Shown here: positions 4,208 through 43,861 of the stretch, piece after piece
How the letters are laid out: each line of letters starts with the position of its first letter
Position numbering within the stretch: position 1 is the first letter of the stretch
Assembly (NCBI GenBank): GCA_038045765.1
Contig: JBBSXN010000005.1
Span: 226,144-290,143, forward strand
From: Nanobdellota archaeon
GTDB taxonomy: Archaea; Nanobdellota; Nanobdellia; Pacearchaeales; GW2011-AR1
Direction: 5' to 3'
Length of the DNA: 64,000 nucleotides
Position numbers and translations under genes: made by a program
Notes under the pieces: model-generated
The model's input: only the letters and a program-made list of their open reading frames with translations
Databases searched by the model: none
What the model was told of the DNA's origin: nothing

Positions 4208-4298
4208 CTTAAAACTTAAACCGAGAGATATTTAATTTCTCCGGTGTAGCCTTTCTCACCTAGATAATGTTTATTAGGCTGTTTCAGTAGTTAAAATT

Positions 4299-18362: not shown

Positions 18363-18368
18363 AGTTTC

Positions 18369-28170: not shown

Positions 28171-29315
28171 TCTATTTTACAAGGCCTCCCATCTATATTA
28201 TCAATTTGTAAAGTGGCTATCTTCTTGTCTAGTGTTTTATCATATATTTCAAGCGTCTTTGCTGATTCTAGAGTAGGTATTCTGATATATAACTCTCCTT
28301 CGTAATTGTATGTCTCTCCAGAAATTTCTTCTTCTCCTGATTGTTGTGAATCGGTGAATATTAATTCAGGATTGAAAGAATCTTCCGCTAGTGTTTCAAA
28401 ATTTTCATTTAAAATATTAAATGAGAAAGAACCTTCACCATTTTTACCAGTACATCCTTGCTCTATATGTCTATCGTTAATTGTTAAAGAACCAGAAGAA
28501 TAATTTGCTGATATTAGATAGTAAAATTGATTTTCACAATTTGTTTCTGATTGAATTGCATTTCCAGTTATTGTTTTTCCTGAGCTTGTTTTTATTTTAC
28601 TTTCTATTAAAAATTCATTGAATTTTCCAAGACTTGTTGAATAGAGAGTTTTCATTAATCCAGAGTCTATTGAACGGTAATAATTGCTTTCTGAACAGCC
28701 TTGAAAACAGCCCTCATTTAATTCATTGAACTCTGAGCAGTCTTTTACACAATTTTTTACATTTCTAGGTAAGTTTGCAGGAGTATATTCTTCAGCAAGG
28801 TTTGCAAACGAATGACTGAATTCATGTGTAATAACTGATTTTGGATTTTTTGTGTTTATACTCATCACATTAAGATAAGAAGAGCTTCTTATTCTTTCTT
28901 GGTCTTCATTTAAAACAAAAATATAATCATTTGGACAGGCACTCGCCTTTCTTATTAAATCTCTTGAGTAGCAGTATAATGCTATTTCTTTATAGTATTC
29001 ACATTCTATTTTCTCATCTATGTAAAAGACATTAAATGATTCTTTTAATTTATTCAGCGGAGAAGTTGATAATAAGTAATCTATATATTCCTTAGTTTGA
29101 TTTTCTGATGCGAAAAATAATAGGTTTATTGATGCGGATGGATTGCTGTAGAGTTGATTACAGGTTTCTTTAGTTTCTGGGCTCAGATTTGTTGGATAAA
29201 AAAAGTAAATTGCTAACCCTATTATAATTAATAGACCTATAATTGAAGAAATTATAATTGACTTGTTTTCCATTGATTCTTTAGAATAAACTGACTTAAA
29301 TAGTTTATTAGACAA
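28167..29315 (-). CDS. membrane-anchored secreted protein with HExxH zinc-binding motif
   Basis: N-terminal TM segment. The motif is HEFSHSFANLAEEY. The ORF overlaps the pilin gene by 4 nt. Confidence 0.45.
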   Translation of the reverse strand: MSNKLFKSVYSKESMENKSIIISSIIGLLIIIGLAIYFFYPTNLSPETKETCNQLYSNPSASINLLFFASENQTKEYIDYLLSTSPLNKLKESFNVFYIDEKIECEYYKEIALYCYSRDLIRKASACPNDYIFVLNEDQERIRSSSYLNVMSINTKNPKSVITHEFSHSFANLAEEYTPANLPRNVKNCVKDCSEFNELNEGCFQGCSESNYYRSIDSGLMKTLYSTSLGKFNEFLIESKIKTSSGKTITGNAIQSETNCENQFYYLISANYSSGSLTINDRHIEQGCTGKNGEGSFSFNILNENFETLAEDSFNPELIFTDSQQSGEEEISGETYNYEGELYIRIPTLESAKTLEIYDKTLDKKIATLQIDNIDGRPCKIE

Positions 29316-29347
29316 ATGTTTATATATTATATACTGATACTTATCAG

Positions 29348-32300
29348 ATGCAAAAGAGGCTAGTGAATTATTTATTTTTTAGTTTTGTTGCTGTTTTACT
29401 TTTAGTTTCAGTTGTTTCTGCTGTTTGGTGGAATCCTAGTACTTGGTTTAATGGAAGAGGAATAACTGGAAATCCAGTAGCTAGTGCAACAGATTATACT
29501 TCTAATTTAGTAGCTTACTGGAAGTTTGATGAGGCTTCTTATTCTGGTGGCTCTGGTCAGGTAAAAGATTATCTTGGATTTAGTAATGGCACTCCAGTTA
29601 GTTCTCCAACTATTGTACCAGGATTGAAAGGTAATGCTGTTAGATTTACTGGTGCTGGTGGTCAAAAAATATTAATTTCCACTACTCCTACTAAATTTAA
29701 TTTAGGTAGTTTTACTCTATCTGCATGGGTTAAGACAAGTGACGCTGGAACTGGTAGAAGGAGAATATTTAGTCAGCAAAATAGTGATTATTATGGTATT
29801 GCTTTAAATGGTAATAATCTTGAGTGTTTCTCCTCTTTAGACTTCGGAGTTACACAATACAATAGCCCTTCGACTGCTGTTCTAAATAATAATCAATGGC
29901 ATCATGTATCTTGTGTAAGAAATACTGGTATTAATAAATTCTTATTATATATTGATGGGGTAAATGTTAAAAATAGCTCTATTACTGGTTCTTCTAGCTA
30001 TGCTATGGGTGCTGGAGGCATTTCCATAAGCCAATATCTTGGCGGAAATTCTGAAATATTTACTGGGCTTATTGATGAGCTTAGAGTTTACAATACTGCT
30101 TTAACTAGTACTCAAATCAATCAAGTGTATGATTTTGCTAAGCCTGCTAGTAGTGCTCAAGCATGTACTTCATTTACATATTCGGAATGGAGTGTTTGTT
30201 CTACTTTAGGACAGCAAGCAAAAACAATTCTTACTAGAACTCCAGATGGATGTACTGGAGGAAGTCCTGAAGCTTTGACAAGGAGTTGTACTTATTATGA
30301 TCCTAATAGAATTTATGTTAATTATACTGTTTCTAGTATGATTTCACCTTATTATTTAACTAATGCAGTTGTTAATTTATCTTATGCTGGAGCAAGTTAT
30401 CCATGTAATTTTATCTCAAAACCTACTAGTTCATTTCCTAATTATGGTATTTATAGGTGTAATGTTCCAAGACTTGGTCAAACAGGAATTTATTATACAT
30501 TATCTTCTTCTGCTCCAGGTTATGCTCAAGATATTGCTTCTTTAGGAAATTCTTTTAATGCTGGAGAATATACTGCTTCAATTATTTTGAATCCATTACC
30601 TCCAACTTGTACATCATTTACATATTCAGACTGGAGTACATGTACATCAGCAGGTTCTCAGACAAAGACAATTCTTACTAGCAACCCATCTGGGTGTTCT
30701 GGTGGAACACCTGAAGCTTTGACACGGAGTTGTCATCCAGACGGAGGTATTGCTACTGCTAGCTTAAGTGGATTGACTGCTATATATGATGGAACACCAA
30801 AATCTATTAGTGTAACAACTAACCCTCCAGGTATATCTACAATAGTGACTTATAATGGTGTAACTACTCCTCCAACTGCGGCAGGTTCTTACGCTGTCAC
30901 AGTAACTGCTAGCCCTCCAACTTTAGCAACTGCTCCTATTTTTACAATGAATACAATGGCAGCATTAGTTATCAATAAAGCAGATCAAACTATTGTATTT
31001 CCCACTATTTCTCCACAAGTTACAGCTGTTCCTTTCGGTTTGAGTGCTACCTCTAGTTCAGGATTACCTGTAAGTTTTAATATTCAAGCAGATCTTGTTT
31101 CAGGTTCTGGAACAATTATAAATAATGTCCTTACTGCTACTGAAGCAGGAGTTGTTACTGTTCGTGCTAGTCAAGCAGGAAATAATAATTATAATCCTGC
31201 TCCTTTTATTGATAAAACAATTTCAGTGAGTTCTCCTTTTAAAACAGTGCAGATTGGTGAGTGGGCTAATGTTGGAGATTCTATACAACTTGCTGGTGCT
31301 ACTTTAGCTAAAGTTCAAAGTATTTCTAGTTCATCAAGTGCAAGCTTTTTTGATAATGATAATGTAGTCTTTCATCAAACAACTTCTGGTGGACCTATAA
31401 CTGGAAAAACTTTTAATGCTATTTCTAAAGGGATAGCTTCTACTCATAATGGTCCTGATTCTAATCATCTTCCTTATTTTGAAGGCGGAATAAATGGTAA
31501 GTTCTATAATGTAGAATATAGAGGAGTTACAGGTTCAACTGCAAATTCTCCTCAAGCTAGACTAGTAGCTATTGTTTGCACTGGAGGAGATTGGATTGGA
31601 ACTGTTAGTCCTTGCACTCCTAGTGGAAATAAAACTATAGAATGGACAAAATCTCCTGCTTATTGTGATTCAACTTTGGCTGGAAGTGTAAATCATCCTG
31701 CGAGTGAAGTTGTTACTTGTACTTATGTTCCTCCAGTTTCTACTCCTATTGCTAATAGTACCTTCCTTTATTATATCAAGAATCAAAGTGGTGCGTCAAT
31801 TCCAGGAGTACAATATAATTTGAAGAATTCAACTGGCGGAGTGTTTGATGATAATTGTATATTTGATGTTTCATCAGGATTGATGTGTGTTAATTTATTC
31901 GCAGGTAATTATTTGTTGAATGTTTCCGCTTCTAATTACTTTTCACAAGTCTTGTCTTTATCTTTAACTCAGAATTATAGAGGTCCTAATTATCCAAATA
32001 ATATTATTACTTTGTCTGGTGCTAGTACTGGAACTACCACTTCTACAATTGGCGCGAATGTTGCTGGATGCAGTGATACAGATGCTGATGCTGCTAATCT
32101 TGGTGGAGTTGATTATAATGAACGAGGAACATTTACTGCTCCTGCAGAGAGTAGTTGGACTGTTGCTCAGAGGACTGATTATTGTGTTAGTGCTATGAGA
32201 TTAGCTGAATATTCATGCGATCCTGCACCTGCTGGTTTTGATTATAATGGTGTTGAAGTAGATTGTCCTGGTGGATGTTCTGAGGGAAGATGTATCGGTT

Positions 32301-32653
32301 CCGGAACTGGTGGAGAAGGAACAACTACTGGAACTGGTGGTGGAACTACAACTACAACTACAACTGGAACTGGCGGATCAGGTACGACTGAAGCAACTAC
32401 TGGAGGAGTTGTTTGTGCAGATGGATGTTCATTAGAAAGTGGACAGTGCGTTCCTCTTGGATATAGAATTGGTGGAAAATATTGTGATGTGAGCAAGAGT
32501 TTGGTAACTTATAAAGCCGATTCAGCTGATTGTGAAAATAATTTTGAATGTGGAAGTAATGTTTGCGTCTCAAATAAATGTATTGAGGCAGGATTTTTGC
32601 AGAAGATTAGTGATTGGTTTAGTAACCTATTTGCAACATCTTCAGCATCTTAA
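29348..32653 (+). CDS. giant secreted protein (1101 aa), paralogue 2: LamG domain, two TSP1-like 4-Cys modules, MBG/Ig-like domains, Thr/Gly linker, conserved C-terminal Cys module
   Basis: Shared leader MQKRLVNYLFFSFVAVLLLVSVVSAVWWNPSTWF. LamG_3 region (LVAYWKFDE...LRVYNTALTSTQINQVY). Modules ACTSFTYSEWSVCSTLGQQAKTILTRTPDGCTGGSPEALTRSC and TCTSFTYSDWSTCTSAGSQTKTILTSNPSGCSGGTPEALTRSC. YDG/MBG-like segment (LTAIYDGTPKSISVTTNPPGISTIVTYNG...AGSYAVTVTAS). C-terminal CENNFECGSNVCVSNKC. Confidence 0.7.
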   Translation: MQKRLVNYLFFSFVAVLLLVSVVSAVWWNPSTWFNGRGITGNPVASATDYTSNLVAYWKFDEASYSGGSGQVKDYLGFSNGTPVSSPTIVPGLKGNAVRFTGAGGQKILISTTPTKFNLGSFTLSAWVKTSDAGTGRRRIFSQQNSDYYGIALNGNNLECFSSLDFGVTQYNSPSTAVLNNNQWHHVSCVRNTGINKFLLYIDGVNVKNSSITGSSSYAMGAGGISISQYLGGNSEIFTGLIDELRVYNTALTSTQINQVYDFAKPASSAQACTSFTYSEWSVCSTLGQQAKTILTRTPDGCTGGSPEALTRSCTYYDPNRIYVNYTVSSMISPYYLTNAVVNLSYAGASYPCNFISKPTSSFPNYGIYRCNVPRLGQTGIYYTLSSSAPGYAQDIASLGNSFNAGEYTASIILNPLPPTCTSFTYSDWSTCTSAGSQTKTILTSNPSGCSGGTPEALTRSCHPDGGIATASLSGLTAIYDGTPKSISVTTNPPGISTIVTYNGVTTPPTAAGSYAVTVTASPPTLATAPIFTMNTMAALVINKADQTIVFPTISPQVTAVPFGLSATSSSGLPVSFNIQADLVSGSGTIINNVLTATEAGVVTVRASQAGNNNYNPAPFIDKTISVSSPFKTVQIGEWANVGDSIQLAGATLAKVQSISSSSSASFFDNDNVVFHQTTSGGPITGKTFNAISKGIASTHNGPDSNHLPYFEGGINGKFYNVEYRGVTGSTANSPQARLVAIVCTGGDWIGTVSPCTPSGNKTIEWTKSPAYCDSTLAGSVNHPASEVVTCTYVPPVSTPIANSTFLYYIKNQSGASIPGVQYNLKNSTGGVFDDNCIFDVSSGLMCVNLFAGNYLLNVSASNYFSQVLSLSLTQNYRGPNYPNNIITLSGASTGTTTSTIGANVAGCSDTDADAANLGGVDYNERGTFTAPAESSWTVAQRTDYCVSAMRLAEYSCDPAPAGFDYNGVEVDCPGGCSEGRCIGSGTGGEGTTTGTGGGTTTTTTTGTGGSGTTEATTGGVVCADGCSLESGQCVPLGYRIGGKYCDVSKSLVTYKADSADCENNFECGSNVCVSNKCIEAGFLQKISDWFSNLFATSSAS

Positions 32654-32695
32654 CTTATGGAAAATATTTATATATCTGCAAGAAATGTTTCTTTA

Positions 32696-35194
32696 ATGCA
32701 AAAGAGATTTCTTAATTATTTATTTTTTAGTTTCGTTGCTGTTTTACTTTTAGTTTCAGTTGTTTCTGCAGTTTGGTGGAATCCAAATACTTGGTTTGAA
32801 GGAAGAGGAATAACTGGGAATGTTGTATCTCCTAGTCAAATTTTTGTTAAAGTAGCTTATTTAGGGAAGATAGATAATAAGGCTGCTCCTTATTCTTTTT
32901 CTCCTGGTGCTGGGAATGATTTTAGTTTTTCTTTACAATTTGATAGTCCTTCCGGTCTTAAAATACAACGAATGAGTTTTACTCGCACTAGTAGTGGCGA
33001 GTATTGGAGAACTTACGGATCTAATGACCCTATTAATGTTTACCCAATTGTAATTTTTGATTCTAATAATCATAGAATAAACAATGCTATGGTTGAGCCA
33101 GCTTTAATTGTCCCTTCTGGCTTGCAAAATTATACTTTTTATTTTGAACCAGGAAGTCCGAATTTTGTAGGAGGAACTTTAACAATTCATTTACAGAATG
33201 AGGTTACCCCAATAACTATTAATGTTCCGGCAGGAGTTGGACAGATAATTACATATGGTTCATATGATTCACATGTATGTACTTCATTTACTTATAGTGC
33301 TTGGACTCCTGCAATATGTTCACTTGGAAGTCAGCAGACTAGAACTGTAACTTCAAGAAGTCCAGCAGGATGTACGACTGGAGTAAGTCCAGTATTAACT
33401 CAAGGTTGTAATGTTCCCACATGTACTTCATTTACATATTCAGATTGGGGTGTATGTCAATCTAATAATCAACAAGCCAGAACTGTGACTGCAAGCAGTC
33501 CGGCTGGATGCACTGGTGGAAGTCCATTATTATATAGGGGTTGCACTCCTTTTGTTTTACCTGCTAATGATAATTTTGTTAATGCTATTTTGATAAATAA
33601 TTATGCTTCAAGTACTGGTACTGTTAATGTAAATTTGAATGGTGCGGGAACTGAGAGTGGTGAAAATAACTTAGCAGGAAACACTGTTTGGTATAGATTT
33701 AATGCTCCTGGGGCAGGTAATTTAAATATTAATTATAATTCTCCTACTGCTGGTGGAATGACTTTAGATTCTAATTTGAGATTATATTCTGGAAGTAGCT
33801 TGTCTTCTCTTATTTTATTGAGAGAGAATTCAATGGTTAATCATGGTCAGACGGTTAGTTTAAATGTTGCTCAACCTGGTAATTATTATTTACAGTTTGG
33901 AAGAAGTGCAGGTAATTTTGGAGCAGGTACTGCTACATTCACTTATGCTTTTCAATCTCTGGCTTCTGGAGCATGTATAGATACTGATGTTAATGCTACT
34001 TATCCTGATGGATTGAATTATTATCTTACTGGTTCTGCTAGCGGTTCTAGTGGGATAGGTTCTAGTGATTATTGCGGTGCAGGATATTATTCAAATACAG
34101 TCTATGAATCTTATTGTAGAGCTTCTGATAATTCAGTCACTACCGCTTATTATAATTGTCCTACTGGAACTGTTTGTACCAATGGTGCTTGTTCAGTTGG
34201 AAGTGCAGTAGTTTCACCTACTCCAGTAGCTTGTACATCATTTAATGTTGGTTCATATAATGCTTGTAGTGGTGGTCAGCAGACTAGAAGTGTTACTGGA
34301 GTTCCTGCAGGGTGTGTTGGAGGAGTAACGCCTCCGGCTAGTTCTCAAGCTTGTTCAGAGCCTAGTATTCCAACTTGTACTGATGCAGATTGGACTTATG
34401 TTGTTGTTGCTCCATCTACTTGTTCTGCTGGTTATTCAAAAGAAAGAAGATGGAGTAAAACTGGAAATTGTGAAGGAGGAATAACTCATGATACCTCTGA
34501 ATATTTACCTTGCAGTTATCCTTATGGTCCTCTTCCTTGTTCTTCATATACATATGGTGAGTGGACTCCTGCTAATTGTGCTGTTGGAAGTCAACAAACT
34601 AGAACAGCATTAGGGTCTTATGGAGGAGGTTTAGGAGGAGTTTATTATGCACAGTGCATTGGAGGAAATCCTGCAGCCATTTCAAGAATTTGTCCTGAAA
34701 ATACTCAGACTGTTACTGATACTAGTTGTTCTTATGGTGATTCTCCTGTTTGTTCAAATGATGAGATTACATATTCAAATTCATGCAATGCTGTAGCTGC
34801 TGGTGCGACTGTCTCTTGTCAGGGTGAGTGTCCTTGTCCTGCTGGAAATCCTGCTCCTAGCCCTGGTGTCGTTCCTGTAGCTGTTCCTGTTCCTACAGTT
34901 ATAACTCCTCCGACCGGTACTGGAATTGCTCCAGTAGTTTCTCCGACAGGTACTTGTTCTAGTGGATGTGAGTTAGATAATAATTGTGTAGATTTTGGAC
35001 ATAGATCGAGTGCAAAGTATTGTGCTTTGTCAGGCATGGTTGACTTTAAGGATATTGGTGTAAGTTGCGATAATAGTTTTGAATGTTCAACTAATTCATG
35101 TATTTCTGGAAAATGTTCCGAAGCGAATATAATTCAGAATATTGTTAAATGGTTTAAAGATAATTGTCCTTCATTTATTTGTTCTGTTAAATAA
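32696..35194 (+). CDS. giant secreted protein (~832 aa from this start), paralogue 3: conserved N-terminal domain, four TSP1-like 4-Cys modules, conserved C-terminal Cys module
   Basis: The ORF track begins at 32657. Homology to the paralogues (MQKRFLNYLFFSFVAVLLLVSVVSAVWWNPNTWF) and a TATA box at 32666-32675 place the start at ATG 32696. Modules VCTSFTYSAWTPAICSLGSQQTRTVT, TCTSFTYSDWGVCQSNNQQARTVT and others. C-terminal CDNSFECSTNSCISGKC. Confidence 0.65.
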   Translation: MQKRFLNYLFFSFVAVLLLVSVVSAVWWNPNTWFEGRGITGNVVSPSQIFVKVAYLGKIDNKAAPYSFSPGAGNDFSFSLQFDSPSGLKIQRMSFTRTSSGEYWRTYGSNDPINVYPIVIFDSNNHRINNAMVEPALIVPSGLQNYTFYFEPGSPNFVGGTLTIHLQNEVTPITINVPAGVGQIITYGSYDSHVCTSFTYSAWTPAICSLGSQQTRTVTSRSPAGCTTGVSPVLTQGCNVPTCTSFTYSDWGVCQSNNQQARTVTASSPAGCTGGSPLLYRGCTPFVLPANDNFVNAILINNYASSTGTVNVNLNGAGTESGENNLAGNTVWYRFNAPGAGNLNINYNSPTAGGMTLDSNLRLYSGSSLSSLILLRENSMVNHGQTVSLNVAQPGNYYLQFGRSAGNFGAGTATFTYAFQSLASGACIDTDVNATYPDGLNYYLTGSASGSSGIGSSDYCGAGYYSNTVYESYCRASDNSVTTAYYNCPTGTVCTNGACSVGSAVVSPTPVACTSFNVGSYNACSGGQQTRSVTGVPAGCVGGVTPPASSQACSEPSIPTCTDADWTYVVVAPSTCSAGYSKERRWSKTGNCEGGITHDTSEYLPCSYPYGPLPCSSYTYGEWTPANCAVGSQQTRTALGSYGGGLGGVYYAQCIGGNPAAISRICPENTQTVTDTSCSYGDSPVCSNDEITYSNSCNAVAAGATVSCQGECPCPAGNPAPSPGVVPVAVPVPTVITPPTGTGIAPVVSPTGTCSSGCELDNNCVDFGHRSSAKYCALSGMVDFKDIGVSCDNSFECSTNSCISGKCSEANIIQNIVKWFKDNCPSFICSVK

Positions 35195-35243: not shown

Positions 35244-36242
35244 TTGTTTTATATGGAAAATGGTAATGAGAAAATAGCTCGTAAGAATTTACTTAGAAAT
35301 GGAGAGAAAGTAGATGGAATTAGTATTAATGGATATAATTTTGATAATGGTGTGGATTATGGTAAGTTAATTGAGAGTTTTTCTAGTACTGGATTTCAAG
35401 CAAGTGATTTTTCTAAGGCAGTTAATATTACTAATCATATGATTGATGCTAAATCAACTATATTTTTAGGATACACTTCAAATATGGTGAGTTCTGGCTT
35501 ACGAGACGTGATAAGATATTTAGTTCAGAATAAAAGAGTAGATATTTGTGTTACAACTGCTGGAGGAATTGAAGAAGATATCATAAAATGCCTTGGTGAT
35601 TTTAAATTGGGAGATTTTAGAGCTAATGGAAAGTTGTTAAGAGAGAAAGGAGTTAATAGGATTGGAAATATATTTGTAAGTAATGAATTGTATGTTAAAT
35701 TTGAAAAGTTTATGAGTGCTGTGTTGGACGAATTGTATGAAATGCAGGTTAAAACTGGTAAAATTGTTAGTCCTAGCGAAATTATTTGGAAAATGGGTGA
35801 AAAGATAGATAATAAAGAAAGTATTTGTTATTGGGCTTGGAAAAATAAAATAAGAATCTATTGTCCTGCTTTGCAAGATGGAGCTATTGGAGATAATATT
35901 TATTTTTCTTCTTTCAAACATCCTAATTTTAAGATAGATATAGTTGAAGATACAAAAAGATTGAATGATAGTACTATTGGACTGAAGAAAAGTGGTGCAG
36001 TAATTTTGGGAGCAGGTGTTGTTAAGCATAGTATATTGAATGCAAATATGCTTAGAAATGGATTAGATTATGCAGTTTACATTAATACTTCTCAGGAATT
36101 TGATGGAAGTGATGCAGGAGCAATGCCGGAGGAAGCAGTTAGCTGGGGAAAGATAACTGCTGGTGCAGAGAGTGTGAAAGTTTATGGTGATGCTACAATA
36201 TTATTTCCATTATTAGTTGCAGAGAGCTTTGCTAAGAAATAG
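35244..36242 (+). CDS. dys: deoxyhypusine synthase
   Basis: TSNMVSSGLRDVIRYLVQNKRVDICVTTAGGIEEDIIKCL is the conserved DHS core. Confidence 0.75.
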   Translation: MFYMENGNEKIARKNLLRNGEKVDGISINGYNFDNGVDYGKLIESFSSTGFQASDFSKAVNITNHMIDAKSTIFLGYTSNMVSSGLRDVIRYLVQNKRVDICVTTAGGIEEDIIKCLGDFKLGDFRANGKLLREKGVNRIGNIFVSNELYVKFEKFMSAVLDELYEMQVKTGKIVSPSEIIWKMGEKIDNKESICYWAWKNKIRIYCPALQDGAIGDNIYFSSFKHPNFKIDIVEDTKRLNDSTIGLKKSGAVILGAGVVKHSILNANMLRNGLDYAVYINTSQEFDGSDAGAMPEEAVSWGKITAGAESVKVYGDATILFPLLVAESFAKK

Positions 36243-36272
36243 TTATTTATAGTGTTTAGTTAATTTATATTC

Positions 36273-36950
36273 ATGCATTTTTCCTTAGTAGTACCAGTTC
36301 ATAATGAAGAAGAAAATATTAAATATTTGTATAAACAGATAAATGATAGTTTGAAAGAATTTTCTTATGAAGTTATAGTTGTGAATGATGGTTCTAATGA
36401 TGGAACTTTATTAGAATTGAATAAAATTAAAGATAAAAAGTGGAAAGTTTTAGATTTGGAGCATAAAGGCAAAGATTATGCTGTTTATGCTGGAATTCAA
36501 AAAGCTAAATCTCAAAATATTGTATTAATGGATGGTGATTTGCAAATTGATGTTAAAGATGTTGTTAATTTGTGGATGGTCTTTAAAAAAAACCAATTGG
36601 ATTGTGTTGTTGGCTGGCGTTTTGATAGGAAAGATGGTTTTGTGAAGAAAGTTTCTTCTTTTGTTGGGAATAGTTTTAATAATTTATTTTTTGGATTAAA
36701 AATAAATGATGCTAATTGTCCTTTGAAGATAATTAATAGAAAATTACTTGTAAATGTTAAATTCTTTAATCATTTTCATAGGTTTATATGTGCTTTAATT
36801 TCTTTGCAAAATGGCAAGATTGAAGAGATTAAAATTAAACATTTACCTAGAAAGTATGGAAAATCGCATTATGGCGTACATAATAGGATTTTTGGTAATT
36901 TGATTAGTTTGTTTAAAGTCAGATTTGGAAGAAGAGAGATATTTGGCTAA
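36273..36950 (+). CDS. GT2 polyprenyl-phosphate sugar synthase-like glycosyltransferase (DPM1/GtrB/AglD-like)
   Basis: LVVPVHNEEENI..., EVIVVNDGSNDGT and LMDGDLQ form a GT-A DxD region. The protein is 225 aa, soluble type. Confidence 0.65.
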   Translation: MHFSLVVPVHNEEENIKYLYKQINDSLKEFSYEVIVVNDGSNDGTLLELNKIKDKKWKVLDLEHKGKDYAVYAGIQKAKSQNIVLMDGDLQIDVKDVVNLWMVFKKNQLDCVVGWRFDRKDGFVKKVSSFVGNSFNNLFFGLKINDANCPLKIINRKLLVNVKFFNHFHRFICALISLQNGKIEEIKIKHLPRKYGKSHYGVHNRIFGNLISLFKVRFGRREIFG

Positions 36951-36960: not shown

Positions 36961-36982
36961 ACTCGTTTTATCTTGATTGGTG

Positions 36983-37999
36983 ATGGCTGTTAAAAAGAGG
37001 GTCGGAGATAATTTAGGATTATATTTATTGTTAGGTGCTTTGGTTCTTGTTGTTTTATTTTATCAACCAGGAGCATTATTGAGTCCAGATTGTGCTGAAG
37101 GCCAAGTTTTGAATGATGCAGGTGTTTGTGAAGATGAATGGATGTCTGGTGATGCTTTTTTATATGATGAAGATGGAAATCTAGTTATCGATATACCTGA
37201 AGAATTTGAGAGTTTTACAGATCCTAGGGACCCAGATGCTTTTAACTTTGGTTCTGAATCTAAAGATTTTGATTTTCCTGAATTTCCCGTAGAATGGGAT
37301 TACCAAGAGGATTTTTATAATGCTTGTGTTGCTGGTGATGTTCCCGATATGGAAGAGAGATGTGGAGATATTGCCCCAATTGAGATAATTCCTCAATGCA
37401 ATCCTTCTCCAGCAGTTCCAGTTGCTAAAATTTATTCTAAAGAAATAACTTTAAATGGAGGGAATGCTTTTCCAGATTCCCGTAAACGAGCAACTATTGC
37501 AGCCGCTGTTGCTGACTTGCAAGGAGAGGCTAATAGAGATAGAACTAATATGATAACTGATTTTGATTGCGAGGGTAGTCCTGCTGAATCTGATATTACT
37601 TGTGAAGTTTTTGATGGTAGAATAAACTATAGAGTTGGTTTAGAGACATCCACACCTCAGAGTAATACTTGTACAAATCCTGGACCATCGACTGCAAGTA
37701 ATCCTATGCATTACGAAACTACTTTTTCTTCAAGTATTGCAGATGATGGTGCCTGTCAGGTAGCGTTGGAAGGACTTGGAAATAATTGGGTAGAGACAGG
37801 GCCTCCTAGTACGTTTAGCTGTCCTAGCGGTTGTGATCCAGCAGGTTCATATGCTTTAGATGTTACGCAAAATGCTGATGGTTGTACTGGTTATGCTACT
37901 AATGATGTTTACTGCGGTCCAAGAGGGGGAAGATTTAGCGGTAAAGTTAAAATAGATCTCTTTGCTTTCTTTACACATGATTGCCGAAGAACTGAGTAA
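36983..37999 (+). CDS. signal-anchored Cys-containing surface protein, mosaic family member A
   Basis: The ORF track uses TTG at 36977. ATG 36983 gives MAVKKRVGDNLGLYLLLGALVLVVLF, parallel to member D. LLSPDCAEGQ and SGKVKIDLFAFFTHDC are shared with member B. Confidence 0.6.
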   Translation: MAVKKRVGDNLGLYLLLGALVLVVLFYQPGALLSPDCAEGQVLNDAGVCEDEWMSGDAFLYDEDGNLVIDIPEEFESFTDPRDPDAFNFGSESKDFDFPEFPVEWDYQEDFYNACVAGDVPDMEERCGDIAPIEIIPQCNPSPAVPVAKIYSKEITLNGGNAFPDSRKRATIAAAVADLQGEANRDRTNMITDFDCEGSPAESDITCEVFDGRINYRVGLETSTPQSNTCTNPGPSTASNPMHYETTFSSSIADDGACQVALEGLGNNWVETGPPSTFSCPSGCDPAGSYALDVTQNADGCTGYATNDVYCGPRGGRFSGKVKIDLFAFFTHDCRRTE

Positions 38000-38097
38000 A
38001 ATTAATTTTCATCTTTCTTTTGCAAATCAATGTCTTAGAACGGCTTAATTTTATTTTTTGGCTAAATATTTATAAACTCGTTTCAGTTTAGAATGTT

Positions 38098-39879
38098 ATG
38101 AGTTTTAAAAGGAGGGCATTGCATAAAAATGCTTGGAAGACTTGGTCTTTATATTTATTAGCAGGATTATTTATTGTTGCGTTTCTCTTTTCACAACAAG
38201 GTGTTTTTTTAAGTCCTGATTGCGAGGATAATGATGATAGTTGTGTTCATGAGGGAGATGAAGATTATATTTCTTGGGAAATTCCTGGAGATGCTTATGA
38301 AGGTGTTCAAGACATAGAAGAGAGTATGAATGATGATCCTGAGACTGAAGATGTTATAGAGGGATTTAAGTTTGGTGGTGATTCTGAAGCACTAGATAAA
38401 GAAGCAGCCGATGCTGCTAAAGAAGCTCAAGAAGATGTTAAAGAATGTGTGGCTGATGCTGATGGAGATCCTGCTAAGCAAAATGAGTGTGGTGAAATTG
38501 CAGCTGCTGCTGGCGGATCTGCTAGTTGTAGTCCTAGTAGTAATCCTTATCCTAAGGTTATAAGAGATTTAGTTACAGTTACTTTTACAGGAGGAATTAC
38601 TGGAGCGCCTTCTGATGAAGCGGTTAAGTCTACTCTTTTACAGAAAGCAGGAGAGCTTAGACAGGAGAATGTAAATGAACAAGAAGCGATAGCTAATGGT
38701 ATGAAATGTAAGGCGTCTACTAAATTTACTAGATGTGAAAAAGAAAATGGAAGAGTTTCTTATTCTATGAAAGTTGAACCACTTAAGAAAAGCGGTGAAT
38801 GTAAAATTCCTAGCGGTTCTGGTGATCAATCTCCAGCTAAGACGGATAAAACTGATTCTTTATCGGCATCAGGTAGCAATGAAGCAGATTGTATAAATAA
38901 ACTTGGAGATAAAGCTAAGGAGTGGGTTCAAGGTCTTAGTTATACTTGTAAGACTGGAAAAATAGGAGCTAATTTCTTTGGTAATGGTGGGACTAATTAT
39001 GGTGAGTGTAAACCTATATATGCTACCTTTGATCTCGATGGAGTTTTTGTTTTATCTCCTGGAAGTTTGGAAGCAGGAACATGTACTGGAAAAGCATCTT
39101 TTACTATTTCTTGTGGTGATGGTCCACTTGTAGAAGGAATTTCAGGAAAAGTTAGAATTTATCTGAAAGGTACATTCACTCATTCTTGTAAACCAATTTA
39201 TGACAAAGAGGCTACTATTGATGGTAGTTCTGGTAGTGGATCTGGTTCAGGATCTGGAAGTGGTGGCAGTAGCGGAGGAGGTTCGAGTGGAGGCACATCT
39301 GGTGGGGGTGGTTCTGCTCCTGAAACTAGTCCTGGAATAAAATCTCCTAGTAGTGATTCTTCAGATAGTTCAGACGCAAATAGTAATTCTGCTAATCCAG
39401 GTAGTGATAGTTCTCTAGCTTCTGGTGATGTTAGTCCATTAACAGATAATTCTAATAGTGCAAATCAAGATAGTAGTAATGATAATTCTAATAGTGCAAA
39501 TCAAGATAGTAGTAATGATAATTCAAACAGTTTAAGTGAGAGTAATGATGCAAATTCTGGTGAATTATCTCCTTTCTTTTCTGCAATTAAAAATGCACTC
39601 CAAGGCCTTAGCGGAGATAGTAAAGATGAAGGTGAGTTGGTGAGCGATAATAGCCAGACCAATTCCCAGAATAGCGATACTTCAAAGTCAAATAGTGCTA
39701 TTAATTTCAATAGCCTTACTAGTGTTAGTAATTCTGATGAAGAGATATTAAGTCCAACGTTAGCTTCAATTAACTATATACTTGAAATTATCAAGGGTGA
39801 AGATACGGAAGTTATAGGTATCTTTCAACCAGTTGAAAAGGCACTTGAAGATTTGCAAGAGTTTTTTGAGGGAAGTTAG
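38098..39879 (+). CDS. signal-anchored surface protein, mosaic family member B (A-like core, G/S-rich and Ser/Asn/Asp-rich repeat tail, conserved C-terminal 45 aa)
   Basis: MSFKRRALHKNAWKTWSLY leader is identical to member C. FLSPDCEDND...SGKVRIYLKGTFTHSC is the A-like core. The tail carries SGSGSGSGSG and DNSNSANQDSSN x2.5. The C-terminus SPTLASINYILEIIKGEDTEVIGIFQPVEKALEDLQEFF is shared with member D. Confidence 0.65.
   Translation: MSFKRRALHKNAWKTWSLYLLAGLFIVAFLFSQQGVFLSPDCEDNDDSCVHEGDEDYISWEIPGDAYEGVQDIEESMNDDPETEDVIEGFKFGGDSEALDKEAADAAKEAQEDVKECVADADGDPAKQNECGEIAAAAGGSASCSPSSNPYPKVIRDLVTVTFTGGITGAPSDEAVKSTLLQKAGELRQENVNEQEAIANGMKCKASTKFTRCEKENGRVSYSMKVEPLKKSGECKIPSGSGDQSPAKTDKTDSLSASGSNEADCINKLGDKAKEWVQGLSYTCKTGKIGANFFGNGGTNYGECKPIYATFDLDGVFVLSPGSLEAGTCTGKASFTISCGDGPLVEGISGKVRIYLKGTFTHSCKPIYDKEATIDGSSGSGSGSGSGSGGSSGGGSSGGTSGGGGSAPETSPGIKSPSSDSSDSSDANSNSANPGSDSSLASGDVSPLTDNSNSANQDSSNDNSNSANQDSSNDNSNSLSESNDANSGELSPFFSAIKNALQGLSGDSKDEGELVSDNSQTNSQNSDTSKSNSAINFNSLTSVSNSDEEILSPTLASINYILEIIKGEDTEVIGIFQPVEKALEDLQEFFEGS
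39445..39530 (+). repeat. 36-nt tandem repeat (gataattctaatagtgcaaatcaagatagtagtaat x ~2.4) encoding DNSNSANQDSSN
   Basis: Seen directly. Copies at 39445-39480 and 39481-39516, then a partial third copy. Confidence 0.7.
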
Positions 39880-41303
39880 TTATCATCTTTTTTATAGAAT
39901 ATAACATAAATATTAGTTTCTTGTATTTCATCTATTTTTATATATTGATCATTTTCTTTTTCAAATATATACTGATTCATTAAAGCGTATGAATTGTATC
40001 TGTCAAAAAAAACTATTGAAGAATCATTAAAATTCTGCTCCTTGATGAGAGATAGATAGAATAATTTATCTTTTACGCATGGAGCGTAAAAACTTAGACT
40101 AGCTTCAGGAATGTCTGTGCTAGTTAGAAATGTTGAATTTGGCCATTTATCGCAGATTTCTTTTAACATAGGTTTCCAATTTTCTCTATCTATTTTTAGA
40201 CTATTTTCATAATATGTTGATAAGTTTGAAGTTATGAACAGAGAAATTATTAATAGAATTAAGATATGAGGTATATATTTATTCCAGTCTCTAGTTTTAT
40301 TGATTGAATAAGAAAGAATAATTATTAATGGGAAGATGGCAAAAGAAAGATATCTGGTTACAAGTATTGGTGTGTAGAAATAATCTATCAGGGATAATAG
40401 TATTATGGGTGTGATAAGGTAGAACAGTGCACTGTTCTTTTCTAGACTTTCTTGTTTTTCTTTAATTAAATGATATATTCCATAAATTACTAGGATAGTT
40501 ATCGCTATTGTTAGAATATTGATTTCTTCAATTTTATAGCTGTTTATGAATGATAGAAATATGCTTCCCAAATTGATTAGGTAGTTTTCTGTCTTACCTA
40601 TCCACAGAATACCTTTTTTGTGAGATATGTTTGTAAAAGCAATACTTACCCATGGAAGATATGATAAAATTATGATGAATAGAGATTTTAGATAGTCTTT
40701 ATTTTTATTATAAATAAACCAGATTATTATTTGGGTTAAAAGTAGTAGAAAACCGAGATAGAGAGTATAAATCAAGGCTATTGTGCTCAATATATATTTC
40801 CATTTATTATTTGATTTTTGGTCTTTTAGGAATATTAAGAAGTAATACCAACTTGCTAGTCCTAAAAGCCAGACTAATGTGTACATCTTTGCTTCTTGGC
40901 TATAATTGATTAGGTACGGCCAGAATGCTCCTAGCAAAGCTGCTAGATATGCAGTTTGTTTATTATTTGTAATTAATTTTGTTAATTTGTATAAATAAAT
41001 TAGTAAAATAGCTCCAAATAGTGCAGAAGGAAATCTAAGAGACCACTCCGATATTCCTATTAGAGATGTCCAAGCTTTTAGAATTAAGTAATACAGTGGA
41101 GGGAAAGGTGAATCTGCTAAATTTGTAAGTGTGTCTAACCAAGAACCAGATATTCTTCCAATAGTCATAAGTTCATCATGCCAGAGACTTGGTGCAGAGA
41201 TTTTGTATATTCTAAGGAGAAAAGCTAATAGGATAATTACTGATAGTAGGATATATTCTTTATTGGTTTTTATGTAATTTAATAATTTATTTTCTTTTTC
41301 CAT
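39876..41303 (-). CDS. GT-C-fold protein mannosyltransferase/ArnT-like glycosyltransferase (PMT_2, GT39/GT83-like), copy 1
   Basis: 475 aa, ~11 TM. The first-loop motif SLWHDELMT is the DE motif. The first ~45 codons are ~85-90% identical at nt level to the 45969 copy. Confidence 0.6.
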   Translation of the reverse strand: MEKENKLLNYIKTNKEYILLSVIILLAFLLRIYKISAPSLWHDELMTIGRISGSWLDTLTNLADSPFPPLYYLILKAWTSLIGISEWSLRFPSALFGAILLIYLYKLTKLITNNKQTAYLAALLGAFWPYLINYSQEAKMYTLVWLLGLASWYYFLIFLKDQKSNNKWKYILSTIALIYTLYLGFLLLLTQIIIWFIYNKNKDYLKSLFIIILSYLPWVSIAFTNISHKKGILWIGKTENYLINLGSIFLSFINSYKIEEINILTIAITILVIYGIYHLIKEKQESLEKNSALFYLITPIILLSLIDYFYTPILVTRYLSFAIFPLIIILSYSINKTRDWNKYIPHILILLIISLFITSNLSTYYENSLKIDRENWKPMLKEICDKWPNSTFLTSTDIPEASLSFYAPCVKDKLFYLSLIKEQNFNDSSIVFFDRYNSYALMNQYIFEKENDQYIKIDEIQETNIYVIFYKKDDN

Positions 41304-41359
41304 CTTAATATCGATACAAATAGCAGAAGATATATAAATAATGTGGCTTATTTTTAATT

Positions 41360-43492
41360 ATGAAGAGGTCTAATAATATTACAGTAAATTCTTCTTGGAA
41401 GAATTGGTTAATTGTTGTGTTGATTGTTGCAATCGTAGTATCTTCTTACTTTGTTTTTTATCAGGATAATATTTATTCTAAGTCTACCACTGGAGCTGTT
41501 CTTTGGCCATGGGAAATATTTGGAGACCCTTGTTATAGTAATCCTGGAGATTTAGATTCAGACGGCGATGGTATACCAGACAATGATGACGACGATGACG
41601 ATAATGATGGAATACTTGATGTTGATGAACCAACAACTGATTCTGATGGAGACGGAACTGAAGATGAAGTAGATACTGATGATGATAATGATGGAACTGA
41701 TGATTCACAAGACAACGATGATGATGGAGATGGAATAGGTGATAACGAAGATACAAGTGACGGAGATAATAATGTAAATGAAAATAGTGGTGATGACGGA
41801 GTTGATGATAATCCTAACGATGATGATACTTATACTATCATTGATGACGAAGTTGATAATTCTGTAAATAATGAGGATACAGATGATGATGGAGTAGATG
41901 ATGTTGTCGATACAGACGATGATAACGATGGAGTACCTGATGGTGAAGAACCTGATAATAGTGATTTAGATGGAGACGGAGAAACAGATGCTATAGATCC
42001 AGATGATGATAATGATGGTGTGGACGATAGCTTTGATAATGACGACGACAATGATGGAATTACTGATGAACAAGATTTAGATAATGATGGAGATGGAGTA
42101 GAAGACAGCTCTGAGGAAGTTACCAATGAGGATGAGGATACGGATGAAGATGGAGTAGATGATTCTGAAGACGTTGATGATGATAATGATGGCGTGAGTG
42201 ATGATGAAGACACAGATGATGATAATGACGGAGTAGATGATGAAGAAGTTGATAATTCAGATACAACTAGTGATTGTGAAGATGGACAATCACTAAATGA
42301 AGATGGTGAATGTGTTAGCGTTATTGATGAAGTATTGGAAGACATATGTAATGATATATTATCAGATTCTTTTTGTGATGGTGGTCTAGAGGAGATTATT
42401 GTAGGTGATGAAGAAGTTGATAATTGTCCAGATGGAACATCTGTTAATGAAGATGGTTATTGTGATGATGATAGCCTTTTAGATGATGTTCTTGATTGTG
42501 TTATCTTAGATGATTGTGATGATGAAATTATTGATGATTGTCCAGATGGAACATCTGTTAATGAAAATGGTGAATGTGAAGATGAGATTACTGATGATGG
42601 TGATTTAGATAACGATGGAATTGAAGATGAAGAAGATGGTGACGATGACAATGATGGAGTATCTGACGAAGAAGATCCCGATGATAATAATGATGGCGTG
42701 GGTGATGAAGAAGCTAATGATGATGAAACGGAAGATGAAGATGAAGAAGAGACGGATGATGAGGAACCAAGTGATACTTGTAAGGATATAGATAACGATG
42801 GCGACGGAGTAAACTCATGTGACGATTGTGACGATAATGATAGTACAAATAAGATAGTAACTGCAGATGCTGATGAAGATGGAATATCTACTTGTGATTT
42901 AGATTGTGATGATAATAGTGAAGATGTGCAAATTACTAAGGCGGATGCCGATTCAGATGGAAAGACTACTTGTGATGGTGATTGTGATGATAATAATAAA
43001 GATGTAAAACCAGGTGCTAGTGAAATGTGTCAAGATAATCTAGATAATAATTGCAATGAATTAGTTGATTGTGCAGATAGTGCTTGCAATGGTTATATAG
43101 TTACGGAAGAAGGATTTGCTATACCTGGTTCTATGTTTGCCCCTCCTAAGAGAGAAGTAGGTATGTGCTGTTCTGGAACACAGGTAGATCATCGATCCGA
43201 TAATAATAATTGCGGATTTTGTGGGAATGTGTGTGCTTCCGATAGATCTTGTAAATTTATATCTATTGCTCCAGGTTGTGTTATAGATAAATGTAAAGCT
43301 CCTACTGGATCAGGTTATCTTACTCAAGCAGATGCTGAGAAAGCTGGTGAAGTTGCTAAATCTAATTTTATCAAAGTATGTACTCTTGCAAAAAATGTTG
43401 ATCTTAGTTATTTTTCTGAGCCTATCTTAGATAATCAAGGTAAAGAAACTGGGCAATCATTCAAAGGTTTCTCTGTAGGCTTTTCTTTTTAG
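41360..43492 (+). CDS. hyper-acidic secreted protein with Asp-rich, thrombospondin-type-3-like (putatively Ca-binding) repeats and C-terminal Cys-rich MopE-like metal-binding motifs
   Basis: N-terminal signal anchor. ~25 repeats of D.DDDNDG..D (e.g. DTDDDNDGTDDSQDNDDDGDGIGDNED). C-terminal motifs CDDCDDNDS, CDLDCDDNSED, CDGDCDDNNKDVKPGASEMCQDNLDNNCNELVDCAD. Confidence 0.6.
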   Translation: MKRSNNITVNSSWKNWLIVVLIVAIVVSSYFVFYQDNIYSKSTTGAVLWPWEIFGDPCYSNPGDLDSDGDGIPDNDDDDDDNDGILDVDEPTTDSDGDGTEDEVDTDDDNDGTDDSQDNDDDGDGIGDNEDTSDGDNNVNENSGDDGVDDNPNDDDTYTIIDDEVDNSVNNEDTDDDGVDDVVDTDDDNDGVPDGEEPDNSDLDGDGETDAIDPDDDNDGVDDSFDNDDDNDGITDEQDLDNDGDGVEDSSEEVTNEDEDTDEDGVDDSEDVDDDNDGVSDDEDTDDDNDGVDDEEVDNSDTTSDCEDGQSLNEDGECVSVIDEVLEDICNDILSDSFCDGGLEEIIVGDEEVDNCPDGTSVNEDGYCDDDSLLDDVLDCVILDDCDDEIIDDCPDGTSVNENGECEDEITDDGDLDNDGIEDEEDGDDDNDGVSDEEDPDDNNDGVGDEEANDDETEDEDEEETDDEEPSDTCKDIDNDGDGVNSCDDCDDNDSTNKIVTADADEDGISTCDLDCDDNSEDVQITKADADSDGKTTCDGDCDDNNKDVKPGASEMCQDNLDNNCNELVDCADSACNGYIVTEEGFAIPGSMFAPPKREVGMCCSGTQVDHRSDNNNCGFCGNVCASDRSCKFISIAPGCVIDKCKAPTGSGYLTQADAEKAGEVAKSNFIKVCTLAKNVDLSYFSEPILDNQGKETGQSFKGFSVGFSF

Positions 43493-43496
43493 ATAA

Positions 43497-43763
43497 TTAT
43501 TTATTAGGAGAGTATTTGAAATAATATGTTTTATTCCCGTAGAACATAGGTCTTAATGAGCTTGTTTCTCTCATTAGTCTTTCTTGTTCTTTTACGAATA
43601 TATCATCTTCTCTCTTTAGTATTTGCTCTCTTTTTACTGGGTCTAAGACAAGAGGTATTCCAAGCAGGCGAGCGTTTGCACATCCTGTTGCGTATAAAGC
43701 ACCTGCTAAAGCAATTGGGGCTAGAATTCTATTTAGTTTGCTTCTTTCCATGTATTTTATCAT
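43497..43763 (-). CDS. hypothetical small protein (88 aa)
   Basis: It lies in an intergenic-size gap. LAPIALAGALYATGCANARLL is a hydrophobic segment. The support is weak. Confidence 0.25.
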   Translation of the reverse strand: MIKYMERSKLNRILAPIALAGALYATGCANARLLGIPLVLDPVKREQILKREDDIFVKEQERLMRETSSLRPMFYGNKTYYFKYSPNK

Positions 43764-43861
43764 AAATATGGATATTTAAATGTTTGTATTTGTTACTTCT
43801 CTATAGTGATATAAATGAATACTTAATGAATATTTATATAGCTTGATAGTTTTATATTAAT

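Follow-up and report, generated by a model that had tools for sequence, protein, structure and literature searches.

The window analysed here, a stretch of 64,000 nucleotides from a Nanobdellota archaeon (contig JBBSXN010000005.1), carries a gene for a family 2 glycosyltransferase (GT2, 36273-36950), a gene for a small membrane protein of the LAB_N family and several genes for membrane-embedded glycosyltransferases of the GT-C fold. We found that GT2, LAB_N and GT-C genes are conserved as an operon across many bacterial phyla and occur as such in one Pacearchaeota genome, and the window probably holds a rearranged copy of this three-gene cassette. The reading of these genes as a three-component polyprenyl-phosphate-sugar system, made up of a GtrB/ArnC-type GT2, LAB_N and GT-C enzymes, is well supported. 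A preliminary description of the interval 35244-36950 had proposed such a system, and this part stood, since the linkage of the three genes is conserved across loci. It had, however, counted the whole interval among the glycosylation components: the first ~1 kb (35244-36242) encodes a canonical, equivalog-level deoxyhypusine synthase (DHS), an unrelated translation-factor modification enzyme, which was ruled out as a member of the system. Proteins are named below by the first coordinate of their genes (Table 1).

The GT2 and its three-gene cassette

The solved structures closest to the window GT2 are those of polyprenyl-phosphate glycosyltransferases. The top seven PDB sequence matches are all ArnC, GtrB or PfDPMS (7e-14 to 4e-12), led by ArnC 9hwj (6.7e-14), GtrB 5ekp (2.5e-13) and PfDPMS 5mlz (4.2e-12), and the top NCBIfam models are PgfS and ArnC. 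The ArnC structure paper gives as family determinants the D-x-D-L-Q motif, the acceptor-phosphate residues R128, R137 and S141, and the donor-phosphate residue R205 (PMC12690121). In the PDB-search alignment, 87-DGDLQI-92 of the window GT2 aligns with the ArnC D100-N105 motif, the extended form of which reads 100-DADLQN in ArnC, 94-DADLQD in GtrB and 89-DADLQH in PfDPMS. Moreover, R116, S129 and R193 map onto identical residues in ArnC (R128, S141 and R205, respectively), and the sole departure among the mapped determinants is the conservative change of ArnC R137 to K125. The assignment to the DPM1/GtrB type with a DxD core, as made in the preliminary description, therefore holds, with the DxDLQ motif and 4 of 5 substrate-phosphate ligands retained and a lysine at position 125. 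Judged from these residues, the enzyme likely makes a polyprenyl(dolichyl)-phosphate-monosaccharide donor.

No transmembrane segment was detected in the window GT2 by a hydrophobic-segment scan, and the protein stops ~25 residues past the R-x-x-G-x-S-x-Y motif. It is thus predicted to be a form free of transmembrane helices, with only amphipathic helices of the juxtamembrane type. The C-terminal transmembrane helices of ArnC and GtrB (two each) and of PfDPMS (four) have no counterpart in it, and in this it is like DPM1 and PpgS, two polyprenyl-phosphate glycosyltransferases without such helices (NCBIfam PpgS model, 226 positions).

The genomic context of LAB_N was examined with an alignment query in one genome per species, which gave 589 confirmed loci. 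The best 80 of these were examined; they cover Pseudomonadota, Acidobacteriota, Nitrospinota, Nitrospirota, Campylobacterota, Desulfobacterota, Planctomycetota, Verrucomicrobiota, Gemmatimonadota, Bacillota, Omnitrophota and one Falkowbacteria genome of the candidate phyla radiation (CPR). With the window GT2 as phmmer query, homologs (E-values 1e-20 to 1e-49) came up at 74 of the 80 loci, and at 70 of them the gene is immediately upstream of LAB_N in the same orientation. The GT2 and LAB_N stop codons are a median of 293 nt apart, and the two genes therefore abut or overlap. These findings agree with the earlier supposition that LAB_N proteins partner such GT2s. The window GT2 scores 70-164 bits against the GT2s adjacent to LAB_N, versus 55 bits against ArnC, and most cassette GT2s (67/73) are also devoid of a hydrophobic segment, with a median C-terminal extension of 5 aa. 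On the other side of LAB_N, a Pfam census recognized PMT_2 in 44 of the 65 open reading frames (ORFs) of at least 300 aa directly downstream (44/80 loci); a narrow custom GT-C hidden Markov model under-called these genes, with 32 found.

The linkage of a GT2, a small membrane protein and a GT-C is also observed in annotated RefSeq genomes, in agreement with our gene calls. Pelagovum has a GT2, LAB_N and a 525-aa membrane protein in this order, and in Ilyobacter polytropus a two-component system is followed by GT2, LAB_N and two GT39 genes. In Cetobacterium, the order is two-component system, GT2, LAB_N, dehydratase, UDP-glucose dehydrogenase and GT39. In Ilyobacter and Cetobacterium alike, LAB_N stands where arn operons have ArnE/ArnF, and the Cetobacterium locus as a whole looks like an arn-type envelope-modification locus.

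Two archaeal loci connect the window to the cassette. A Pacearchaeota contig (L091) has an intact triad of GT2 (229 aa), LAB_N (92 aa) and PMT_2 (528 aa), and its GT2 and LAB_N are 47% (full length) and 58% identical, respectively, to those of the window. GT2 and LAB_N are thus conserved between the two, and the GT-C is divergent. With its 47% full-length identity, the window GT2 is an ortholog of the cassette enzyme encoded beside LAB_N. A closer relative (L090) has the gene order LAB_N > GT-C > < 336-aa protein < GT2 < DHS, so that a single gene separates the GT2 from the LAB_N-GT-C pair. Identities to the window are 80% for the GT-C, 75% for the GT2 and 53% for the 336-aa protein, which was compared with ORF36977. 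A 6.4 kb segment of the window (38098-44512) is absent from the syntenic L090 locus, as expected from an insertion or a duplication, and brings a second GT-C (39876) and three extra surface-protein genes. Given the mosaic paralogy of the surface proteins (see below), the GT-C was duplicated together with surface-protein modules.

Some further loci were noted. The window LAB_N is 48-66% identical to those of the bacterial loci (L006-L085) across many phyla, and the nearest homologs of the window GT-C outside DPANN were found in Omnitrophica; these two observations suggest, on sequence similarity, that the cassette has passed between domains among groundwater and sediment lineages. An Omnitrophica metagenome-assembled genome (MAG; L002, 6001-11072) encodes the nearest bacterial homolog of GT-C 44509 (39% identity) and, after it, a cassette-type GT2 of 236 aa, a SPOR/TPR protein and a 612-aa PMT_2-TPR fusion, the architecture of which is reminiscent of eukaryotic TMTC-type protein O-mannosyltransferases; gene calling gave no LAB_N within 6 kb. 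On a plasmid of Hymenobacter sp. HDW8 (L088, 3965-4633), two LAB_N genes stand in tandem next to a two-component system. A GT39 gene and one resembling GDP-mannose 4,6-dehydratase are close by, but no GT2 adjoins the pair. By analogy with ArnE/ArnF, the tandem genes suggest heterodimeric pairs.

LAB_N and the GT-C enzymes

The window LAB_N gene ends within the start of the GT-C 44509 gene, with an overlap of 17 nt, and the GT-C is translationally coupled to it. A word-indexed search returned 1641 LAB_N relatives, and each of the best 120 listed is a stand-alone protein 80-116 aa long. Across 32 aligned archaeal and bacterial members, identity to the window protein ranges from 52 to 78%, and 20 columns are invariant (W6, G10, F17, R20, Q24, W25, E29, P37, F40, W41, S44, G47, Y54, D60, F63, G66, Q67, Y74, R76 and N77), many of them polar or charged residues within helices. 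The RefSeq name of the protein is only 'lipid-A-disaccharide synthase N-terminal domain-containing protein'. The rgtF gene, considered as a LAB_N gene, was ruled out, since it encodes a GT-C.

A PDB search with the single LAB_N sequence gave no match. The AlphaFold2 (AF2) model (pLDDT 93.6) has three helices, at residues 5-31, 38-58 and 61-89, and its top ten Foldseek matches in PDB are all SemiSWEET or SWEET structures (4x5m, 4x5n, 5ctg, 5cth, 4rng), with probabilities of 0.80-0.99, TM-scores of ~0.55 and weak E-values of 0.2-1.3. By charge distribution, loop 1 (EKNKK) and the C-terminus (KEKDGKRK) are cytoplasmic, which points to an N-out/C-in topology, in which the cytoplasmic half of the bundle would contain R20, Q24, W41, S44, Y74, R76 and N77. 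LAB_N may share with the SemiSWEETs (PF03083) the fold of a three-helix bundle of ~90 aa and this presumed topology; it belongs to the same Pfam clan and is probably dimeric like them. It differs from them as a separate family (PF07578) with invariant residues of its own, and it is encoded next to enzymes of lipid-linked sugars rather than next to genes of sugar catabolism as SemiSWEETs are (PMC5972207). The PQ-loop/MtN3 clan holds LAB_N together with MPDU1 (PMC3281891), which is required for the use of dolichyl-phosphate-mannose (Dol-P-Man) and dolichyl-phosphate-glucose (Dol-P-Glc) (PMC3281891, PMC9169118), and for CLPTM1L, which is also in this clan, glycolipid scramblase activity is proven (PMC9169118). 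The link to MPDU1 is at clan level only, as hhalign of the LAB_N profile against an approximate human MPDU1 sequence gave no signal. Altogether, LAB_N is a candidate for translocating the lipid-linked sugar, for serving the GT2 as its partner in the membrane, or for both.

The invariant residues of the GT-C 44509 family are R31, D43, E44, P69, R90 and S93, the D43-E44 pair being found in 31 of 31 members. A PDB search with the single sequence gave nothing meaningful. The AF2 model (pLDDT 91, pTM 0.90) was more informative: all 33 Foldseek matches at E <= 0.001 are GT-C enzymes, as are ranks 1-45 and 47-48 of the 50 matches listed, the remaining three (E > 0.05) being unrelated. Among them are AglB (2.9e-8), STT3, ArnT (the best superposition, TM-score 0.61), Pmt4, ALG9/12, DPY19 and PglB, and, with weaker E-values, Emb, AftB, PIGU and PimE. 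A PF13231 match, a fold with multiple transmembrane helices and an acidic motif in the first loop identify the protein as a PMT_2-type GT-C, and Pfam, profile and Foldseek results all point to GT-C glycosyltransferases rather than to unrelated transporters. From these features, GT-C 44509 likely moves a sugar from a lipid donor to an extracytoplasmic acceptor.

Within the GT-C class, for which a comparison with families GT39, GT83 and GT66 had been suggested, the defining features of none of the three were found. GT39 (PMT proper) was rejected: PF02366 matches only GT-C 39876, at 0.0083 and under the cutoff, and neither MIR nor PMT_4TMC is present. PMT structures align with GT-C 44509 over only ~260 columns, and the C-terminal soluble part of its model is a small alpha/beta domain of ~95 aa. 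For GT83 (ArnT), there was no match to an ArnT NCBIfam model or to Arnt_C, and the profile match to ArnT 5ezm reached only 4.9e-4. For GT66 (STT3/AglB), we obtained only a 40-residue local AglB profile match and 22.6 bits with TIGR04154, against a cutoff of 450. The WWDxG motif of STT3 is absent from all six frames of the window, in agreement with the preliminary description, which had seen no STT3/AglB WWDYG motif.

Four GT-C candidates had been proposed, of which 44509, 39876 and 9851 pass the PMT_2 threshold, whereas 5780 has no Pfam GT-C match. Compared by sequence, the four do not belong to a single family: close paralogy is limited to 44509 and 39876 (46% identity), and GT-C 9851, with ~10 hydrophobic segments, has weak similarity to the others. 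As listed, the gene of GT-C 9851 has a TTG start and shares its first 26 nt with the end of a DNA ligase gene (8197-9876); its true start may be a downstream Met (MEFREFF...). GT-C 5780 has ~9 transmembrane helices and an invariant H32-x-D34-E35 in its family alignment. A PDB profile search with this family returned noise only; hhalign against the PMT_2 profile gave a probability of 93.8% (E 1.7e-7, 323 columns) with the Asp-Glu motifs in register, and by this comparison 5780 is counted as a remote GT-C. Because of its place at the end of a Wzx/Wzy cluster and its lectin-like domain, it probably belongs to a separate pathway.

Proposed pathway, candidate acceptors and competing readings

These components suggest the following pathway. 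By strong homology, the GT2 would lie at the membrane's cytoplasmic face through its amphipathic juxtamembrane helices, and would put one nucleotide-sugar-derived sugar on polyprenyl or dolichyl phosphate, as do ArnC, GtrB and dolichyl-phosphate-mannose synthase (DPMS), the carrier lipid being presumably supplied by the acylphosphatase-UppS fusion. LAB_N, probably as a dimer, would bind the headgroup of the lipid-phosphate-sugar and help it to cross to the outer leaflet, and could also anchor the GT2. We propose this translocator step because of the operon position, the fold, the polar conservation within the membrane and the absence of another candidate flippase from the cassettes examined. 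GT-C 44509 and its duplicate 39876 would then pass the sugar to an extracellular acceptor by means of the first-loop Asp-Glu pair. In the weakest step of the scheme, the acceptors would be the adjacent anchored Ser-rich proteins, a PMT-like O-glycosylation in an archaeon free of lipopolysaccharide. In its widest form, in which LAB_N would be a widespread family of polyprenyl-phosphate-monosaccharide translocators on the SemiSWEET/PQ-loop fold and the counterpart of the MPDU1-linked flippase, and in which the archaeon would have acquired or shared a cassette of bacterial type and would O-glycosylate its own surface proteins with it, the proposal is put forward tentatively.

The choice of acceptor is suggested by an adjacency conserved in one relative, by the co-duplication of the GT-C and by Ser-rich linkers. 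The neighbours of the GT2 (ORF36977) and of LAB_N (ORF46302) are both kept in L090, where a 380-aa protein beside LAB_N is 39% identical to ORF46302. The low-complexity ORF38098 has 20% S+T and no N-X-S/T sequon, compared with 7.5 expected, despite its 38 Asn. More broadly, the predicted surface or secreted proteins of the window (15075-21857, 27724-35194, 36977-39879, 41360-44512 and 46302-47438) contain 38 sequons compared with 92 expected from residue shuffles, a ratio of 0.41, versus 0.86 for 21 cytoplasmic ORFs. This depletion may mean that N-glycosylation sites are selected against, or it may stem from a low-complexity composition that is ordered. The surface proteins between 36977 and 47438 are mosaic paralogs that share N-terminal anchors, Cys-rich cores and C-terminal tails. 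The N-termini of ORF38098 and ORF43862 are 58% identical over residues 1-47, the C-termini of ORF38098 and ORF46302 are 70% identical, and the cores of ORF36977 and ORF38098 are 28% identical. ORF41360 has 31 Cys and repeated D-x-D-x-D-G-type (calcium-binding-like) motifs.

Several observations weigh against the proposed pathway. The window GT2 lies 9 kb from LAB_N and deviates from the family consensus (DD to ND, GQ to GK and QN to QI). The LAB_N Foldseek E-values are weak, as expected for a three-helix protein, and no biochemical or functional study of any LAB_N protein was found in the accessible literature. Chlamydia has a fusion of LAB_N with LpxB (Pfam description; NCBIfam PRK01021 match), and as LpxB needs no flipping, this fusion is as compatible with lipid binding or anchoring as with a flippase. 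In bacteria, the targets of PMT_2 enzymes are often lipid A or glycans instead of proteins; the window GT-C has no MIR domain and is not assignable to GT39 or GT83. Moreover, a homolog of AglB or GtrA may be encoded elsewhere in the genome.

Some of these points recur in the rival explanations. If the clustering were coincidental, the GT2 would be an ordinary soluble enzyme with a non-lipid acceptor and unrelated neighbours. The 9 kb to LAB_N, the co-directional DHS gene, the lack of a transmembrane helix and NCBIfam matches that are all far under the equivalog cut-offs would fit; nevertheless, the 47% full-length identity to the GT2 of an intact archaeal cassette, the match to the GT2 adjacent to LAB_N in 70 of 80 loci, the conserved phosphate ligands and the single gene between GT2 and LAB_N-GT-C in L090 speak to the contrary, and this GT2 orthology and synteny make coincidence very unlikely. 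LAB_N could also be a membrane-anchoring, carrier-lipid-presenting subunit of the GT2 (cf. DPM3/DPM2), with the flipping done by another protein, spontaneously or by a scramblase. Such a role would suit the 67 of 73 cassette GT2s without the C-terminal helices of GtrB, ArnC and PfDPMS, the abutting or overlapping genes, which suggest a stoichiometric complex, and the type-II DPMS, composed of a DPM1 free of transmembrane helices and small membrane subunits (PMC12992685); the Chlamydia fusion, too, joins LAB_N to a peripheral enzyme of the cytoplasmic face. We nonetheless consider it an unlikely full account, as 20 invariant residues, many of them polar and intramembrane, and an identity of 52-78% between archaea and bacteria exceed what a simple anchor needs, the window LAB_N is translationally coupled to the GT-C and not to the GT2, the cassettes examined offer no other flippase candidate, and the fold looks like that of a sugar translocator. 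The anchor and flippase roles of LAB_N are compatible.

The remaining alternative concerns the acceptor, which may be a glycan or a lipid instead of protein Ser/Thr, such as an N-glycan receiving its terminal sugar (AglS-like), a glycolipid or a Wzx/Wzy polymer. An archaeal lipid-phosphate-mannose route that finishes an N-glycan is known from AglD/AglR/AglS (PMC3871713), and bacterial cassettes lie, like arn loci, beside two-component regulators and sugar-nucleotide enzymes. ArnT gives the best overall superposition among solved structures, the MIR domain of true PMTs is missing, and the window also has a Wzx/Wzy cluster and a GT-C that bears LamG. However, the archaeal host has no lipid A, the sequon depletion of the local surface proteins implies few N-glycans on them, the GT-C was duplicated along with surface-protein genes, and the Omnitrophica PMT_2-TPR fusion suggests protein recognition in the family. 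We therefore regard a glycan or lipid acceptor as somewhat improbable and keep the neighbouring anchored Ser-rich surface proteins as the presumed acceptors, although this is the weakest of our inferences.

Relation to known systems and genomic setting

What differs, in comparison with known three-component systems, is a SemiSWEET-like LAB_N as middle component together with a GT2 free of transmembrane helices; the overall logic is known. The ArnC/ArnE-ArnF/ArnT system, which modifies lipid A with undecaprenyl-phosphate-L-Ara4N in Gram-negative bacteria, has a GT2 of the same family, a GT-C of the PMT_2/ArnT fold and, like LAB_N here, an operon-encoded small membrane protein in the flippase slot, and bacterial cassettes stand beside arn-like neighbours. 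It differs in that the window GT2 has no transmembrane helix, that ArnE/F are four-helix proteins of the SMR/EamA type whereas LAB_N has three SemiSWEET-like helices, and that the window GT-C reaches no ArnT-specific model. Moreover, archaea have no lipid A. A comparable locus, Bordetella lgmA-D, consists of an ArnC-like gene, an ArnT-like gene and two others; lgmC is required and lgmD is dispensable (PMC4993483).

The comparison extends to the Gtr systems, the haloarchaeal Agl route and protein O-mannosylation. The functions of GtrA and GtrB are conserved and GtrC is variable, a pattern which the conserved GT2/LAB_N and the divergent GT-C mirror. GtrA/GtrB/GtrC and the Gram-positive CsbB(GtrB)-GtcA-YfhO share with the cassette the logic of a lipid-phosphate-monosaccharide, a small translocator and an external GT-C (PMC7389260), but LAB_N stands in place of GtrA, GtrB has two transmembrane helices instead of none, and the GT-C is of the PMT_2 type, not GtrC/YfhO. 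AglD/AglR/AglS of Haloferax volcanii follows the same archaeal route of a GT2, a membrane delivery protein and an external transferase, AglS adding the final Dol-P-mannose sugar to the N-glycan (PMC3871713). In contrast to the cassette, however, AglR is a Wzx-like protein with multiple transmembrane helices, not a LAB_N, and AglS acts on an N-linked glycan; no AglB was found within the window, and sequons are scarce in the neighbouring surface proteins. The eukaryotic and actinobacterial DPMS-PMT systems of O-mannosylation with MPDU1 have a GT2 without transmembrane helices (DPM1), a GT-C with a first-loop Asp-Glu, a PQ-loop-clan membrane protein tied to the use of lipid-linked monosaccharides (PMC3281891, PMC9169118) and, as in the window, Ser-rich secreted candidate substrates. 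They differ from the window in that its GT-C has no MIR domain and a marginal PF02366 match, that no DPM2/DPM3 homologs are present, and that MPDU1 has seven transmembrane helices versus the single three-helix unit of LAB_N.

Three-component lipid-monosaccharide systems shape surfaces in all domains, through Arn antibiotic resistance, Gtr serotype conversion and protein O-mannosylation, and of their steps, the one least understood is how the lipid-linked sugar crosses the membrane. The eukaryotic Dol-P-Man flippase is still unidentified (PMC12992685, PMC9169118). The cassette is a small, genetically simple prokaryotic system for the idea of a PQ-loop-fold flippase of lipid-linked monosaccharides; if LAB_N is indeed a translocator family, it would represent a prokaryotic counterpart of the long-sought Dol-P-Man/Dol-P-Glc flippase function linked genetically to MPDU1. 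For DPANN archaea, it is a bacterial-type module that points to surface-protein glycosylation and was enlarged by local duplication beside rapidly diversifying surface proteins, which likely matter for host attachment.

Table 1. Coordinates of the features discussed, with Pfam matches (E-values) and remarks.
Feature	Position	Strand	Match or remark
GT2, 225 aa	36273-36950	+	PF00535 6.9e-24
LAB_N, 90 aa	45953-46225	-	PF07578 5.2e-31, 107 bits vs cutoff 26.7
GT-C, PMT_2 type	44509-45969	-	PF13231 1.3e-18
GT-C paralog without its own LAB_N, in the 6.4 kb insertion	39876-41303	-	PF13231 7.3e-13
GT-C, PMT_2 type, different subfamily	9851-11389	+	PF13231 2.7e-10, 41 bits vs cutoff 26
Remote GT-C-like domain with C-terminal LamG	5780-7768	-	LamG_3 6.7e-11, residues 511-651
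Acylphosphatase and cis-prenyltransferase (UppS-type) fusion	26565-27605	+	PF01255 7e-68, PF00708 1.4e-20
Deoxyhypusine synthase	35244-36242		PF01916 1e-114; NCBIfam equivalog level
Secreted/anchored Cys-rich protein, candidate acceptor	36977-37999	+	N-terminal transmembrane segment; directly downstream of GT2
Ser/Gly/Asn/Asp-rich low-complexity surface protein, candidate acceptor	38098-39879	+	Convergent with GT-C 39876
710-aa surface protein, Cys-rich, in the inserted segment	41360-43492	+	35% D+E
Small anchored protein	43862-44512	+	Convergent with GT-C 44509
Anchored Ser/Asn/Asp-rich protein, candidate acceptor	46302-47438	+	Divergent from LAB_N
WecG/TagA-family glycosyltransferase	345-1046		Wzx/Wzy cluster
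GT4	1953-2993		Wzx/Wzy cluster
Wzy_C polymerase/ligase-like	2990-4207		Wzx/Wzy cluster
Wzx/MATE-like flippase	4299-5786		Wzx/Wzy cluster

For carrier supply, the acylphosphatase-UppS fusion that had been reported in the window proved real, with strong matches to both domains, and it recurs elsewhere: ~27 of the best 150 cluster representatives match the full query length. It would serve carrier synthesis in general and is not specific to the GT2-LAB_N-GT-C module. Its gene shares one base, the final one of the stop codon, with a preceding DHH/DHHA1 phosphoesterase gene (25507-26565), and one might speculate that one or both of these extra phosphatase-type domains convert polyprenyl diphosphate to the monophosphate needed by the GT2.

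The Pfam scan covered 46 window ORFs, namely LAB_N and the greater part of the 58 ORFs that reach 100 aa. None of these 46 matched the GtrA family (PF04138), and the only other small ORF with multiple transmembrane segments, at 11990-12409, is a DUF7144 protein. The separate Wzx/Wzy-type glycan cluster spans 345-7768 and also includes a 305-aa ORF without an assigned family, with GT-C 5780 and its LamG domain at the end.

The window has a G+C content of ~30% and, judged by its archaeal markers and nearest relatives, stems from a DPANN archaeon. The markers are DHS, an ATP-dependent DNA ligase, TBP and GatD/E. The nearest relatives of its proteins are MAG proteins labelled 'Nanoarchaeota archaeon' at NCBI, with identities of 93-71% and up to 95%.

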